Assembly (NCBI GenBank): GCA_963169515.1
Contig: CAUJEF010000152.1
Span: 1-33,742, forward strand
DNA: 33,742 bases
From: Bdellovibrionota bacterium
GTDB taxonomy: Bacteria; Bdellovibrionota; Bdellovibrionia; Bdellovibrionales; JAEYZS01
Direction: 5' to 3'
Part shown: in pieces, positions 1 through 9,000 of the stretch
How positions within the stretch are numbered: the first letter of the stretch is position 1
Layout of the letters: every line of letters starts with the position of its first letter
Program-made: the position numbers

Positions 1-3000
1 GCGCACGTTATCGATGGATCCCTATTGCCTTCAAATGAATATATCGCTCTACCGAGCAAAAAAAGAATTGTAATACACTCAATCCGAAACCATAAACACA
101 TTTTAAAAAGCGCAAGCAAGGGCGAGGCTGTTACGCTATCAATTAACACAAATTTGGATCGAGGGGATCTGCTCGTCCCCTTAAAAAATAAAATACGACA
201 TTCAAAGAGGCTAGACGCCATCATAATTTGGTTTTCACATACGCCACTAAAGGCCGGAATTGACGTTACGCTTCAGAGGATGGCTTCCACTCAACCCGCA
301 ACAATTGAACATGTACACACTAAATTTGACCTAGAAGTCTTTGGGAAACAAATTGCCACGGACAAGCTCGAAATAAATGATACTGGGATTGTCACTATCA
401 TGTCCTCTAATGACATTTATTTTGATGACTACCAAAATTGTAAGAAGATGGGAGCTGGAACAATTACAGACAGAAACAATGGAAAGGTCTTAGGGGCCTT
501 TCTTCTTAAAGGAAACGTTTAATGGTTATTTGGATCACGGGCCTCCCCAGCTCAGGAAAAACTACCCTAGCACAACAGTTAGTAATTTTGTTCGAAAAAA
601 ATAGAATCCCGTGCGAGCATATCGATAGTGATCAAATTCGGAAGGTTTTTTCAAATACTGGATATTCGAAGTCCGCACGAAACGAACACACTAAAATGGT
701 CGGATATTGGGCAAGCAGGCTTGAGCATTTTGGAGTTGTGCCCATTGTCTCATTAATTTCGCCCTATGAAGAGTCTCGCAACTACGCCCGGCGTGCTTGT
801 TCTGATTTTTTTGAAATCCATTTAACTACTGCTTTGACAGTATGCGAGTCTCGAGATCCAAAGGGTTTATATAAAAAAGCACGGAATGGGGAAATTCGAG
901 AGTTCACCGGCATAAGTGCTCCGTACGAAGCCCCAACCAATGCAGAACTTGAGCTGGATACTGGCACTCTATCCATCTGCGATTCTACACGCCTGATAGT
1001 AAACCACCTGAATACCCGAAGTGGAAAATATTTATGGAATTCATGTCTGAAATAGATTTCCAACGCCTGAAAGCAAAAATCCACCAGCGCGGCTACATTC
1101 GAACTGACCTCCGCGGAACATCGATGTTGCCCCTATTGAAAGATGGCCAGGAAGTTTTAATACAAAAACTGACAGCGGAATTGAAGACTTTTGATTCTAT
1201 TGTTTTCTGGAATGGTAAAGTCTTAATTTGTCACGTAATTAAACATATAAATTCAATTTCAAAAAGCTATGTAACGACCGGCCTACTCCTTCAAAAAGAA
1301 GACACTCCCGTCATGGAACATCAGATTCTTGGACAAGCCACAATTAAAATTCCATTCTTTTTAAAAGTGTATTTAACAATTAAATGGAAACTCAAGGATT
1401 GATCAGCGTGATTAACCCCAGCTTTTTTAATTCGTCCGCAAATTTTTTCAACTGGCTTTTAACAGCGTGCTTAGATCTGCCTGCGTCGACCAAGCGACTC
1501 GAAATGTGCTTTAAGGAACTTTTGCCATCGATCAAGACCCAAGCTTTGGCCGCTAAACCATCTATTGTGTAGCATATGGACATTTCCTTCAGATCAATAA
1601 CTGTTACACTGCCATCTTGGTTCGATTTCGTCAAAACCGATCGCCTTTTCCTAAGCATAGAGCGTAAACTGGCCGACTTCATATCCATTACACTAAGGCT
1701 AAACCACGGGCCCTGCAATGTACTAGTTAAATACCAAATGTAATGATACTGCCGCACCTTTTCCAAACTCTAATTTATTTGCCAGGCCAATAAAAAAATG
1801 GGACGCTTCAGGCTTACAGGGGCGGATTATGTCGAATGACAAAAGAAGTAAAAAGGCCATCCAAAAAGGGACTGCCACTACCACTGCCCAAAGCAGCTCC
1901 GAAAAAAACTTTAAATTTGGTCAAATAAAAAAAATAGCCTCAACACGTAAACAACACAGGCCAATTATTCATGGCGGATCAGGTACCTGCACCTCATAAG
2001 CAACCGAATATAAAGCCGTATGCGCTGCTAGGGACCGCACGCTCAGGATCGACGCCTTTTTTTCGCCTAACGTCACAATACATACAGCAGCATTCCAACC
2101 AACTCGATGCCCATGAATTTTTGATATATTTAGGTCAAAAATACAAAATAAATAAAGATTATTCCATAGAATATTGGGGTGCTGGAATCTCTGACCCAGC
2201 AAGATTGCCCGGCTTTGGGTCACCTCAGTTCCATAAACGCCTTAACTTTATCCGCAAAAACTATCACCGCTATTATCTGAAGTTCTTTGCATCTATGATG
2301 ACTCCCGATGTTCAACGCTGGGCCATGGACAGCTATCAATGGTTACTTATTGAACGACGAGACTTATTTCAACAACTTCTTAGCCGACTTATTAGTAAGC
2401 TAACAAATCATTGGTATAGCAATGAAGGGACAAACCTATTACAAAATTCTCTCATCGCCCCCTGCCGCGAGGATGGTCGATGTGTCTACATCGATTTTTT
2501 TGCAGAGGAAATGATCACCTACTTTCAAATAAAGAATTATTTGGGCGATCGAGCTCGAACAGTTTACTACGAAGACTTTGTGACCCAACCGGTTGAAATA
2601 ACTCTCGAAAAAATTGGCTTTTCTCAACCGTTTGATATAACCAAATTTGAATGGACGTGTCGGCAAAACCCCATGGATAAATCTTCGATTTTTAAGAATA
2701 TTGGTGAAATACAGCAATGTTACAGGGCCACCGTCTTGCAGAGCTTTTGTCCCATCAAATGATTCCAGCCAAGAGGCCATAATAAAAATGATCAACCAAA
2801 TATCAAAAAATAAGATTCCAACAAAACCCAGGGGGGTTTTGTCCAAGCGTGTAAACAAAAACAAAATAGTAATTCAACGCCTAGGCCTGCCTGACAGTTT
2901 TTTTTTCATCGACTTTGTTGCAGCTGAGGCTTGGGATTTAATGAATGGCTCAAACAGCTTCAGCCAAATAGTTGCATTACTTAAAGAAAAACACCCGGAA

Positions 3001-6000: not shown

Positions 6001-9000
6001 AATGAAAAAACTATTTAAGCAAAATTGGTTCTTACTTCTGGTCGGTTCGTTTTTAGTTCTTTCCGCATGGGGCAGGATTAACTTGCCAGCTTTTTGGGAT
6101 GAAACTAAGGTGTATTTTAGGCCTCTTTTTTGGATGTATGAAAATAACGGGAACTTCTTTTCTCTTGCCCCTACAAAATTTGATCGCCCGCCGGGGCTGC
6201 ATTTATTTTATCTTCCATTCCTTTGGCTGTTTGGACCCCACGTTGTAGTTGTCCGCGTCCTGAATGTAATATTTTTCTATATTGGGCTATTTTTTTTCTA
6301 CAAAGTTCTAAGCAGGCAGAACGCCACAACTGCCCAGGTGACAACGGTATTTTTCCTGCTAACACCCATTGTTGAAGTTTATTTTGTACAATATATCGGC
6401 GATGCTCAGCTCTTCATCTTATACTCTGCTGTGCTATATGCCCTTACCTTTTATAAAGATAAATATGTAACCATTTTCATTCTAGGTTTTTTAAGCGGAC
6501 TCGCAAGGGAACCTGCAGTTTTTCTCACCCCTGCAGTTCTTTTTTATTATCGATATGAAAATAAGAAGTTAAAAAAAAATGAATGGCTGGCCTCTTTCGG
6601 GCCTTTTTTCGGTTTCTCGACGGCCATACTCATCACCTTTTTGAAAACCAGATTATTTTTTAATCATTTAACAATCGACTCTGGTCACATAAACTTTTTC
6701 CTAAACCTTTTTGAGAGACTAGACATTCTCAATCGAGCCTTCATAGTCCCTTATAGAATTCTGCCTTTGCTGGGGTTTGCTTCAATCATGTTTTTCTTGA
6801 ATCGGAAGGCGCTTCGAGTTTCTGCATCTGACGCTTACTGTTTGATTATTGGACTTGCAAATCTAACTCTATTTTCTAGTCACACACTTGCCCTGCCAAG
6901 GTACTTTTTTGCTGGTTTTCCATTTATATTATATCTTTTAATCAAAATCTGCTTTGCAGGCTCGACTTCAAAAAGGATGAAAGCCATAATAACAACACTT
7001 ATTTTAGTCCCTGCAATATTTATTGGCACCCCCAAAGTCAAAGACCAAAAAGGCTTTTATTTCATGACAGGCTATCAAGATACGATGGAATATATAAAAG
7101 TGTTAGGGGTCCATAAAAAGGTAATAGCTACAGTTAAGACGGAACTCAGAAGTGCGGACACAATTGCAACCTCCTGGCCTTTCATTTCGATTCTTGAATC
7201 CAAATATGCTGGATATGGACCTCCCGGTGAATTTAATATCACCGCTGATTTAGAAAAGCTCATTGTACCACCACGTGCTATTCTATGGACCAATTTCCCC
7301 GAACAAATACCTCGCGGAGAGATCGACAAAATTTTATCTCATGCACAATATAGAGAAACTGTATTCGATTATCCACCGATTAAAATTCGCCTTTTCCTGA
7401 AGCCCAATTAATGGTAACTCTAAATACGTATGAAAAGTAAACAACTCCCCGGTACTTTTAGATTTGCTGAAGGTATTTTTATTTGCAATTCACTGAACTC
7501 CCTCCAGTTGGTCAAGATACATCGCTCATCTGGCGTCTACGATCTGGATGGTTTGGTGGCTCAAATCGTAAGAAAAATTGACGGAAAAACTTCCCTACAG
7601 ACAATTGTAGAATATATTGCATCCCAAAATAATATAAATATTGATGATCTTGCCGCAGAAACCACACACTTAGTCGAATACTTACTGGCTGAAAACTTAA
7701 TTAAGATCCAATCAGACTACATCGATATGAATTGATCTTCCGTAGGCTGAAGCAATTTTACTTTCTTTAGCTCAACAATATTAGAGCGAAGCTGTTCGCA
7801 CGGGGCGGCAAGGTCCAGCACATTCATAGCCCCTCCAAACATTGAATAGAGATGTAATTTTTGATCAATACAAATCACACTAATATCTTCAGCTGGCCTA
7901 AAGCGTTTGCCATCTAGGCTCAATACAAATATTTTTCTCATACTCTCACTCAAATCTACATCAGTAATATTAGCGCTAGACGTGGGGCTGAACGCAACTC
8001 GCAACACTCCCAAAAGGCCTGCGACATTGCTTACGCGATGATAACATTTTTCAAAAAAAGAAAAGCCACTTAAATTTGTTGAAAAGAGTTCTTTTAATAT
8101 AACGCGATAAGCTTCCGAAGTTTTCATTCTGGAGGCCAATGCACAAAACCTTTGCGCACGGCCACAGTGGTAGAAACGCAGCAGATAATCCACTACCCCT
8201 CGATCAAAATAAACTTTGGCCATGGCTCGACGATCGGCGACTATATTTCCTCCAGAAAGAAACAACCTCGTTGATAAGTCAGTGTCCTCAAACCTTGCCA
8301 AAGATTCATCAAACCCTCCAATTGCAACAAAAAAATCTTTGCGATAAATACACGCTGCCGTATTGACGGCAGGGCCAACTCCATTGCGATGTACTACAGA
8401 AATGGCGGTTCCACAATATCGGGATTGATTGAGCTTCTTGCGATAGACATTCAAAAAATTTTTCTCACCGTCAGGAATGACCTGTCCCAACGCAATTCCG
8501 AAATGAGCTTCGTCCAATCTGCGACGCAGAATATCAAGCCACATTTTATCTAACACAACATCGCTATCGATAAATGCCAAAAACTTACCTTTTGCTGCTG
8601 CTACCCCAAAATTTCGAGCTGACCCGGCGCCCTTTTTTTTACAGCTCACGATTTGGATGTCAAATTTTCTCGCAATTTCTACAGTACGGTCGCAAGAGCC
8701 ATTATCAACTAAAATCACTTCGCAATGGCGCCCCCCTCTATAGAGGTTCAAAATGGATTCTATAGTTGCGCCAATAGTCTTTTCTGAGTTTAGCGCTGGT
8801 ATAATAAATGTGGTATCAACTGTCATACTTGTGCTTTTATACCGAAATAGATTTTTAGACAATTACCTAAAATAATTCCTTGCCAAGTCATAGTCACATT
8901 GTCGTCTAATAATAAGATGAAAACGTGGCTTATTACCGGTGGCGCCGGGTTTATTGGTAGCGCTTTGCTGCGCACAGCAATCGAGGGTGGGCATCGCTGC

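Follow-up and report, generated by a model that had tools for sequence, protein, structure and literature searches.

The window (the whole 33,742-nucleotide stretch analysed, contig C152) opens within the 3′ part of cysN (1..522, + strand), encoding the large subunit of ATP sulfurylase; the 5′ part of this gene, together with cysD, ends contig C163. The adjacent cysC (522..1055, +) encodes an APS kinase for PAPS supply (APS_kinase E 2.6e-46; TIGR00455 over cut-off). The genes of the cluster are packed tightly and their frames are all open. Re-reading the frames confirmed the ORFs named in a preliminary description of this DNA.

Sugar genes follow the cluster. The gene rmlB (8899..9936, +; dTDP-glucose 4,6-dehydratase, TIGR01181 over cut-off) precedes a polyprenyl-phosphate sugar synthase-like GT2 gene (9912..10670, +), whose best matches, AglJ, PpgS and dolichyl-phosphate hexose transferase, are under cut-off. 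Genes for an NDP-sugar C-methyltransferase (10667..11890, +; PF08484 E 1.3e-53, PF08421 E 3.5e-20) and an NAD-dependent epimerase/reductase (11874..12668, −; Epimerase E 2.3e-24) lie between it and rmlC (12641..13159, −; dTDP-sugar 3,5-epimerase, TIGR01221 over cut-off), which is the likely right edge of the locus.

Judged from the contig ends, the cluster very probably continues past the start of C152, which would hold the right half of a locus of ~28 kb running C104-C124-C163-C152. CysN is split, with model positions 1-210 at the end of C163 and 239-404 on C152, and 19 residues encoded at the left end of C163 fit before model position 20, where the first gene of C124 starts. The ends of C124 and C104 overlap by 80 nt at 89% identity; the ends of C163 have no letters in common with those of C152 or C124, and these joins are deduced from the split genes. 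The candidate adjoining contigs carry genes for an HprK-like kinase, a putative nucleotidyltransferase (NTase-like), glycosyltransferases and a Wzm/Wzt exporter whose best matches are galactan exporters; those on C124 are HprK-like, NTase-like, GT4, GT2 and twitch rSAM. The HprK-like gene (C124/C104) matches TIGR04352 at E 1.6e-5, under cut-off, and its linkage to the window is deduced across two contig gaps. The NTase-like protein has S-D-x-D in 5/5 sequences, a PDB match of only E 0.52, and no match in Pfam or NCBIfam searches. The host is probably a predatory bacterium.

Predicted leader peptidase, RRE proteins and candidate precursor

The gene g02203 (1034..1402, +) encodes a soluble signal-peptidase-I (SpI)-like protein, the predicted leader peptidase. 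It had been taken for a fragment; it is a whole protein of 122 aa with a complete triad (Ser30, His67 and Asp90). Ser and His are present in 23/23 sequences of its family, and the third position is Asp or Glu in all 23. The protein matches TIGR02228 at E 1.8e-5, under cut-off, and the family profile matches SEC11 at E 5e-7. LppS, the RRE-dependent leader peptidase of the linear polyphosphorylated peptides (LPP), has the triad S29/H68/D93 (Popov et al. 2026, PMC13381572). With its LppS-type triad, g02203 is the key marker that links the locus with the LPP kind of RiPP (SpI, RRE, HprK kinase and NTP transferase).

Three stand-alone RRE genes were re-found: g02204 (1392..1766, −), which is convergent with the peptidase gene and probably starts at the ATG at 1682, g02206 (2788..3081, +) and g02209 (7430..7735, +). 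As before, g02206 (PqqD E 6.3e-6) and g02209 (E 1.5e-5) are over the Pfam cut-off and g02204 (E 1.3e-3) is under it. A profile of the three with nine order relatives matches TbiB1, PbaB1 (9X90) and LppB (9X8Z), and a discrete RRE gene adjoins the peptidase gene.

A 56-codon ORF (1829..1999, +) had been proposed as a candidate precursor. It has a Lys/Arg-rich start and an FGxIKxI motif at Phe30, and does not match the LPP leader consensus YxxPxVLxHQxIxFETxxS (PMC13381572). A cut is predicted, by eye, after Ile47-His48-Gly49, leaving a core of residues 50-56 with two Ser, two Thr and one Cys, the last residue being Ser. In leave-one-out tests the ORF matches a Lys-rich ORF family that adjoins RRE genes, ranking 7, 10 and 30 of 19,913, with the relatives' precursors and the motif chosen by eye after this ORF was known. 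Weaker results come from a three-sequence profile (rank 692 of 52,728), from a shuffle test using the G056 ORF (only 100/5,000) and from codon use (70th percentile of random short ORFs). On the whole, the ORF has more support as candidate precursor than in the preliminary description, and it is predicted to be translated.

Four other runs contain no disruptive difference in the covered parts of the locus. They hold only two variants of the ORF, both missense and inside the 21-nt core; the variants come from contigs of depth 2.8-4.3 and also fall within the sulfotransferase N-terminal extension. Core variation among strains that are identical elsewhere points to selection by phages, prey or competitors, acting on a molecule of the surface or a signal.

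The LanB-fold enzyme

The gene g02207 (3082..6018, +) encodes a full-length LanB-fold enzyme of 978 aa, in agreement with the preliminary description (Lant_dehydr_N E 2e-40, residues 36-600; Lant_dehydr_C E 9.3e-26, residues 702-954; TIGR03891 over cut-off). PEARLs, small LanB ligases, have no elimination domain; contrary to them, g02207 has Lant_dehydr_C. Its AF2 model (pLDDT 88) resembles MadB (9G04), NisB (4WD9) and MibB (5EHK) across the whole chain (TM 0.72-0.78). Like these, it has the whole two-domain fold, an internal RRE-like region (about residues 133-221), the glutamylation core R14/Y80/R83/R87/R464 and the lyase residues R784/R786/E823/H961 (NisB numbering); W616 and H782 are also kept. 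Unlike these systems, it has 14-18% identity to them, no LanC, no FxLD leader, and replacements of Thr89 (Leu80) and Arg826 (Ile789). NisB D121 and D299 are not recognisable, their alignment columns being gappy. The full set of nine NisB residues called essential (R83, R87, T89, D121, D299, R464, R786, R826 and H961) is therefore not kept. In NisB, T89A, D121A and D299A abolish dehydration in an E. coli study (PMC4341554), and R826A glutamylates without elimination, so that glutamylated peptide builds up (PMC4979651). The absence of T89 and R826 thus leaves plain dehydration open to doubt.

The enzyme had been described as an orphan. However, three relatives share 29-31% identity over the full length and form with it a clade (support 100) with a common pattern of kept and lost residues. 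Arg826 is gone in 4/4 members (Ile, Ser, Val and Ser), whereas 140/144 other LanBs have Arg; Thr89 is lost in 3/4. Eleven catalytic-site residues are invariant in all members covering them, compared with 118/978 invariant columns overall. His961, His782, Arg784, Arg786 and Glu823 are invariant at about 30% identity, an argument for a lyase site that is still functional. All LanBs of the order are on long branches, and that of G077 is broken into two frames.

PMC9486935 predicts that full-length LanBs are all of the anti type and states as a rule that they eliminate through Arg826/His961; this clade offers a test of that rule. Like the syn-glutamyl lyases SptBb and CoiSA(ED) (PMC9486935), g02207 has a hydrophobic residue at the Arg826 position. 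Unlike them, it keeps His961, has its domain within a full-length LanB, and is without the signature Lys: Phe737 occupies the Tyr position, taken as NisB Tyr776 from spacing, and the clade has Phe, Phe, Tyr and Tyr.

As described previously, LanC was not found: one search of the genome (96% complete, 173 contigs) gave a best match of only E 0.028, and tblastn with four LanC-like queries gave none at E<=0.01. An enzyme-made thioether ring is therefore not expected. We lean slightly towards g02207 dehydrating core Ser/Thr to Dha/Dhb; that it leaves glutamyl esters in place is less likely, and an inactive enzyme and one acting on another substrate are each improbable.

Tailoring genes and related loci

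The gene g02205 (1971..2762, +) encodes a putative Stf0-like sulfotransferase. The earlier sulfotransferase call stands in part: Pfam again gives only E 0.031 and ESM Atlas links the protein to Stf0-type clusters (0.97), but a profile of its homologues has no match in the PDB. Among aligned homologues, 2/5 match Stf0 (best E 0.002) and R-x-G-S, at the candidate PAPS-binding loop, is present in 5/5. Homology starts near 2003, and the G243 and G006a homologues have no N-terminal extension; the 29-nt overlap with the precursor thus falls in that extension.

The gene g02208 (6002..7411, +) encodes a polytopic GT-C (PMT-like) glycosyltransferase, as proposed earlier; it again has no Pfam match, and Atlas links it to clusters (0.99), some with PMT_2. 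The GT2 encoded at 9912..10670 plausibly supplies its sugar donor. No GT-C homologue was found in 29 related loci. The GT2 g02210 (7717..8826, −) had been called MftF-like; MftF is indeed its best NCBIfam match, but far under cut-off (108 bits vs 280). Among the loci examined, the relative nearest to it (E 2.5e-40, 35% identity) is in G370, two genes away from a precursor-like ORF.

The g02203 family occurs in 22/384 order genomes and in seven of the eight with LanB-type genes, kin not being independent. In 22 other peptidase loci, each of 2-30 kb, we found HprK-like genes in 11, RRE in 8, wzm in 8 and NTase-like genes in 6; LanB and the g02205-type sulfotransferase each occur in only one. No relative had been thought to share the cluster, but the order contains relatives of the same make-up: one G056 contig carries the peptidase, an RRE-like gene, sulfotransferases, LanB without LanC and a precursor-like ORF. 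In G243, a precursor-like ORF lies directly 5′ of the closest g02205 homologue (E 2e-20). The earlier peptide-modification reading is supported, on firmer ground than in the preliminary description. A Bdellovibrionales SpI, PIP88705.1, is given in a data file of PMC13381572 with two RREs and without a precursor; by eye, it looks like a member of the g02203 family.

Proposed pathway, alternatives and known systems

The locus is a real gene cluster for a small sugar-decorated peptide, and it probably makes an LPP-like ribosomal glyco/sulfo-peptide in seven steps. The 56-aa ORF would be translated, and the stand-alone RREs would bind the leader near FGxIKxI and hand it to the enzymes, by analogy with LPP and lasso systems. 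LanB would acylate core Ser/Thr from Glu-tRNA, as deduced from the kept residues, and then most likely eliminate. The HprK-like kinase, the NTase-like protein and GT2/GT4 would add phosphate and sugar to a single residue, which may be the terminal Ser or the Cys, and the Stf0-like enzyme would sulfate the sugar with PAPS from cysDNC. The Ser/His/Asp protease with an RRE would cleave after Gly49, as suggested by LppS. Finally, the Wzm/Wzt-type ABC-2 exporter would move the peptide out, and GT-C would transfer a branched deoxysugar to it at the outer face, with polyprenyl phosphate as the carrier. The product is likely a short linear peptide, glycosylated and sulfated, with a variable core and tied to the cell surface. 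With a dehydratase that has no cyclase partner and has lost a residue held to be essential, the cluster predicts a product not yet described and possibly new chemistry.

That the peptide is the target of the GT-C, the sulfotransferase and the sugar genes is our inference. Enzymes of the Stf0 and GT-C types usually modify sugars and acceptors in the envelope. It is accordingly conceivable, though rather unlikely, that two systems coincide: a RiPP module (peptidase, RREs, precursor and LanB) within a surface-glycan locus, in which cysDNC, the sulfotransferase, GT-C, GT2/GT4, the rml genes and Wzm/Wzt make a sulfated polysaccharide or protein glycan. The resemblance of Wzm/Wzt to galactan exporters, the missing GT-C homologues and the embedding of LPP clusters in capsular loci (PMC13381572) fit this, as does the twitch rSAM in two genomes without a peptidase match, by which the glycan genes may form a system of their own. 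Against it, precursor-like ORFs and RREs have sulfotransferase and GT2 homologues as neighbours (G243, G006a and G370), and the stand-alone RREs, three in number and interleaved with these enzymes, are more than a single peptidase would need together with a LanB that brings its own RRE.

With the cluster unchanged, LanB could instead be an acyl-transferase only, leaving a glutamate or other tRNA amino acid ester on core Ser/Thr or a sugar hydroxyl; without elimination, LanC is not needed. The loss of Arg826 throughout the clade, the NisB R826A phenotype, the missing syn-lyase Lys, the loss of Thr89 in three members and the LanC searches favour this. Side-chain esters are labile, however, the lyase residues are invariant, and the LanBs of G365 and G094 have no Arg826 yet adjoin LanC; we consider it unlikely. 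Very unlikely is a decaying patchwork, in which LanB and the RREs would be left over from a lanthipeptide cluster that lost LanC and the 56-codon ORF would be chance. The loss of T89, R826 and recognisable D121/D299, the long branches, the broken G077 gene and the weak single tests of the ORF point that way. The open, tightly packed frames, the residue pattern common to the four clade members, the confident LanB model and the intact covered parts of the four other runs speak against it.

We also regard as doubtful, as one joint proposal, that the clade without Arg826 elimination is a tRNA-dependent O-acyl (glutamyl) transferase or follows a third, undescribed elimination route, and that it works on a hypervariable 7-residue core that is also glycosylated, sulfated and ABC-2-exported to the predator surface, the product of a hybrid of the LPP and lanthipeptide machineries.

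Paeninodin/pseudomycoidin-type phosphorylated, glycosylated lassos combine an RRE with an HprK-like kinase, NTP transferase and a C-terminal Ser in glycan-rich loci. The present locus resembles them in the RRE, in the HprK-like kinase and putative NTP transferase of the probable adjoining contig and in the terminal Ser, and differs in having no lasso cyclase or B2 protease. Mycofactocin MftF and glycocin S-glycosyltransferase systems bring together a GT2, an RRE and a short Cys/Ser/Thr peptide, as here; unlike them, no MftC or C39 transporter was seen in this locus. The candidate core with Ser/Thr and Cys is like that of a class I lanthipeptide.

The LPP cluster lppA-K-B-S-D-N of Paenibacillus alginolyticus (Popov et al. 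2026, PMC13381572) shares the soluble SpI-like protease, with Ser/His/Asp at similar spacing and an N-terminal helix, the stand-alone RRE, the setting among polysaccharide genes without a cyclase, and the HprK-like kinase and putative NTP transferase, here on an inferred adjoining contig. The make-up had been called undescribed; its SpI and RRE core is of the LPP kind, but the rest stands apart. The leader opens with a Lys-rich stretch and carries FGxIKxI rather than YxxP...FETxxS, the predicted core is of 7 residues vs 45, and the exporter is ABC-2 (Wzm/Wzt) rather than MsbA-like. Three RREs, LanB, the Stf0-like sulfotransferase with cysDNC, GT-C, GT2/GT4 and twitch rSAM are additions; Lant_dehydr and lantibiotic are absent from six supplementary files of PMC13381572. 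The published LPP family is almost all from Bacillota, and the present locus points to a parallel LPP-like family in 22/384 genomes of a single order, which has a leader motif of its own and tailoring enzymes of plug-in type, LanB being one choice among them. The cluster joins the recently described LPP-type leader-cutting machinery with an unusual cyclase-less lantibiotic-type dehydratase.

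Gene cluster and flanks

The window holds a real gene cluster. Each ORF named in a preliminary description was found in its place, and several of its family calls were confirmed: the LanB-type dehydratase g02207 (3082-6018, plus strand; Pfam and TIGR03891), the GT2 glycosyltransferase g02210 (7717-8826, minus strand), APS kinase, and the three PqqD-like RiPP recognition elements (RREs; 1392-1766 minus, 2788-3081 plus and 7430-7735 plus), two of which score above the PqqD cut-off and one below. In the genome (96% complete, 173 contigs), neither a profile nor tblastn with four LanC-like relatives as queries found a LanC, in line with that description. 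The putative sulfotransferase g02205 (1971-2762, plus strand) has a Pfam match of E 0.031 only and scores 0.97 to Stf0-type clusters in the ESM Atlas. GT-C protein g02208 (6002-7411, plus strand) is without Pfam match and scores 0.99 to Atlas clusters, some of which carry PMT_2. The Atlas matches support assignment of the two as a probable sulfotransferase and a probable GT-C glycosyltransferase. The Atlas clusters nearest to the sulfotransferase are mostly viral, counting members with a record. A word-index search with the sulfotransferase recovered only itself among 184 candidates, and PDB searches with the sulfotransferase profile and with the profile of the NTase-like gene described below gave no significant match. 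By eye the GT2 seemed to have an RRE-like C-terminal tail, a reading that was dropped since its relative in genome G370 does not evidently have one. The sulfotransferase, LanB and GT-C genes have a codon use below the 5% quantile of the long ORFs of the genome, hinting at later acquisition.

The locus appears to extend beyond the window, with the contig joins C104-C124-C163-C152 (the last being the window contig) resting on split genes. The window contig starts within cysN, and the 5' part of cysN, together with cysD, forms the end of C163, which also encodes a divergent wzm/wzt pair. The other end of C163 encodes the first 19 residues of a membrane protein; C124 picks up at position 20 of the model for the fused MFS/spermidine-synthase family, continuing with a GT4, a hypothetical gene, a GT2, a twitch-domain radical SAM enzyme, an NTase-like gene and an HprK-like kinase. 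The end of C124 overlaps the start of C104 (80 nt, 89%), on which a gene for a membrane protein and two GT2 genes follow. No shared letters were found between C163 and its neighbour contigs. On the right flank (8899-13159), RmlB, a polyprenyl-phosphate sugar synthase-like GT2, a sugar C-methyltransferase, a reductase and RmlC could plausibly supply a branched deoxysugar to the GT-C.

Other genes lie nearby. C104 (L218:11651-13498) carries a 115-codon ORF with a twin-arginine-like start, a Cys-rich tail and no Pfam match, followed by adenine-nucleotide-hydrolase-like and acetyltransferase-like genes. Just right of rmlC (13238-16351), and probably outside the cluster, are genes for a beta-helix protein whose tail is choice-of-anchor Q-like and for an S8 protease that has an Ig-like domain. 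Further right are an IS200-like (Y1) transposase domain protein (26320-27030), a 995-aa ORF without any Pfam match (27152-30139, minus strand) and a 611-aa PLD-like protein (31831-33666).

Signal-peptidase-like protein and candidate precursor

The g02203 product (1034-1402, plus strand), previously taken for a peptidase fragment, is a complete protein of 122 aa. Its family, defined by a profile of g02203 and the homologue in genome G056, occurs in 22 of 384 genomes of the order. Two Pseudobdellovibrio matches and the gene content suggest that this order is probably Bdellovibrionales, whereas acetyl-CoA synthetase gave no taxonomic information. All 23 sequences keep Ser30 and His67, and the Asp90 position is Asp or Glu in 23/23; the profile matches SEC11 signal peptidases. 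The further 22 peptidase loci fetched (2-30 kb each, many ending at contig ends) contain an HprK-like gene (11), an RRE (8), wzm (8), the NTase-like gene (6), GT4 (5), the twitch enzyme (4), this sulfotransferase (1) and LanB (1). RRE homologues are found in 51/384 genomes of the order. RREs fused to a Peptidase_S74 (endosialidase chaperone) domain are seen at L150:574-1278 and L161:12930-13751, shown by Pfam for G330 and G041, and RRE frames of 250-290 aa occur also in G125, G145, G158, G141 and G253. These fusion proteins lie in peptidase-bearing genomes, often preceding radical SAM/SPASM genes.

The candidate precursor is a 56-codon ORF (1829-1999, plus strand). The clusters of G056, G370, G006 (three loci), G243, G033 and G332 contain short precursor-like ORFs whose start is Lys-rich and which have, 20-33 residues before the end, an [FYL]-[GA]-x-[IVL] motif; these were chosen visually out of larger sets of ORFs rich in Lys/Arg. 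When the 19,463 short ORFs of the genome are scored against the G056 ORF, which was itself picked for likeness to the window ORF, the window ORF comes fifth; the G056 ORF takes first place among 190 on its own contig, and the score is reached by 100 of 5,000 shuffles. The combined pattern fits 2 of 5,705 ORFs of the genome, one being the window ORF, and 3 of 618 in related loci. With a profile of eight relatives from which it was left out, the window ORF ranks 10 or 30 (HMM) and 7 (PSSM) of 19,913; among the 866 Lys/Arg-rich ORFs it comes first. Against this, a three-sequence precursor profile ranks it 692 of 52,728, its codon use is unremarkable and its ribosome site is weak. In G243, a precursor-like ORF directly precedes the closest sulfotransferase homologue (E 2e-20), the start of which matches the window gene near 2003; therefore, the 29-nt overlap of the ORF with g02205 falls in an extension only.

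Contigs of four other runs differ from window positions 1-8900 at just two sites: 1977, in two runs from two studies, and 1992, in one run. The two variants are missense, at residues 50 and 55, inside the predicted core; the chance of both falling in 21 nt is ~1e-5 if they are independent and ~0.008 for a linked pair anywhere. The variant contigs have a depth below 5, and the changes are also missense in the overlapping sulfotransferase extension. At 1418-1453, the end of the first RRE gene, three of the four runs have a contig that matches only there and is unlike the window in both directions; it probably comes from another organism and matches by chance.

Signal peptidase sites follow a small-aromatic-small pattern. 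The leaders of the relatives end V-Y-A, V-F-A, V-F-G or A-F-A, and by eye the window ORF would be cut after Ile47-His48-Gly49, leaving residues 50-56 as the putative core. A double-glycine cut is not favoured, because Gly50 varies and because of these leader ends.

LanB distribution and predicted activity

That no relative shares the cluster, as first described, does not hold: its make-up is common to relatives such as G056 and G370. LanB-type genes occur in 8/390 genomes of the class (6/384 by Pfam), counting G130, whose contig looks foreign (10% contamination). Seven of the eight also hold the peptidase, kin among them not being independent, and only the window genome and G056 have both on one contig. 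The G056 contig carries an RRE-like gene (without Pfam match; E 0.06 to the second RRE), sulfotransferases, LanB, a GT4-like gene, asparagine synthetase, a precursor-like ORF and the peptidase. Its 26.7 kb showed no LanC. The G056 cluster also has MBOAT, carrier protein and class II tRNA-synthetase-like ligase genes (L027:11098-15286, L029:9891-12172), with IS21-like genes further along the contig. G370 has cysDNC, two RREs, the peptidase, a sulfotransferase, a relative of the GT2 (E 2.5e-40) and a precursor-like ORF, without LanB. Relatives thus carry a wider chassis with or without LanB, which makes LanB an optional module. LanB adjoins LanC in G311, G094 and G365, and G077 combines LanC with a Cys-rich ORF and the peptidase. 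The G077 LanB (L121:1253-4649), flanked by a 2OG-Fe(II) oxygenase and a glycosyltransferase-like gene, is split into two frames. In G186 (L120:11357-12562), a stand-alone glutamyl-lyase domain faces a short ORF with an FDLD leader and a Cys/Ser/Thr core, and adjoins an O-antigen-ligase-like gene, an adenylation enzyme and a carrier protein.

A full HMMER search with g02207 gave 4,034 relatives. The three closest (E 4e-125 to 3e-99, 29-31% identity) are far ahead of the next (6e-38) and form one clade with g02207, support 100, in a FastTree of 45 sequences (the four, 8 next matches, 28 random of the rest and 5 LanBs of the order); the tree was used for the clade only, because the LanBs of the order are long branches. 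A search of genome contigs for the loci of the three, by alignment and with P0003, one of them, found no locus, a metagenome scan gave generic LanBs at 80 loci (20-33% over the best segment), and in a cluster look-up the three are single members. The AF2 model from 69 sequences (pLDDT 88), adopted over that from 4 (pLDDT 49), has TM 0.72-0.78 to MadB, NisB and MibB.

In NisB numbering from the 4WD9 alignment, Y80, R83, R87, R464, W616, H782, R784, R786, E823 and H961 are kept in 4/4 of the clade, and R14 in the three that cover it, although only 118/978 columns are invariant. The T89 position is Leu, Ile, Thr and Val, and D121 and D299 map to gappy columns and are not recognisable. In work on NisB, T89A, D121A and D299A were mild in L. 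lactis and abolished dehydration in an E. coli study (PMC4341554); MadB is described as keeping all nine listed residues (PMC12241602). An inactive g02207 seems improbable, and action on another substrate equally so.

The R826 position is Ile, Ser, Val and Ser in the clade and Arg in 140 of 144 other LanBs (at least 850 aa; 2 of 150 listed were shorter and left out). R826A is reported to glutamylate without elimination (PMC4979651). That g02207 leaves a stable ester we consider a minority prospect. Full-length LanBs are all predicted to be anti-eliminating in PMC9486935, where the syn-lyases, as g02207, are without Arg826, but the syn-lyase Lys is absent in g02207. Because the lyase residues are kept and the LanC-linked LanBs of the order carry Thr or Val at 826, we lean slightly towards retained elimination by g02207.

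Comparison with known systems

Other RiPP-like loci were noted by eye. Four lasso-type clusters (L203:3790-4878 in G288, L210:3318-4418 in G363, L211:3539-4624 in G287 and L212:3679-4773 in G110) have RRE, B2-like and asparagine-synthetase-like genes and a single protein of ~365 aa whose N-terminus resembles a lasso leader and core, the precursor apparently being fused to a long domain. SynChlorMet-like cassettes (L207:5723-8474 in G263, L208:5676-9338 in G198) have a Cys-bearing precursor with a YxxP leader, a kinase-like gene, an RRE, a radical SAM gene and a second type of signal-peptidase-like gene.

No description of a hybrid of LanB and a signal-peptidase-I-like protease was found in the literature, subscription papers and bioRxiv supplements being outside the scope, and nothing on a Bdellovibrio lanthipeptide LanB or on a combination of RRE, S26, sulfotransferase and glycosyltransferase. 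The supplements on linear polyphosphorylated peptides (LPPs) contain no such hybrid in a domain table that covers only their largest cluster (PMC13381572). PMC7296275 and bioRxiv 2020.03.13.990614 contribute nothing decisive.

LPP clusters, as described there, sit in capsular loci, comprise an RRE, HprK kinase, NTP transferase and MsbA-like exporter, and have a final product that is unknown; LppS (S29, H68, D93) is their RRE-dependent leader peptidase (Popov et al. 2026, PMC13381572). The g02203 product is a protein of this sort and serves as the marker of the locus. The accompanying data file has one Bdellovibrionales member, with two RREs and without precursor (PMC13381572). By analogy, the locus is predicted to work like an LPP cluster, from which it departs in two features, leader consensus and exporter type. 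It is not a class I lanthipeptide locus, being without LanC and having lost LanB residues. New here are the LanB, the sulfotransferase and the leader type.
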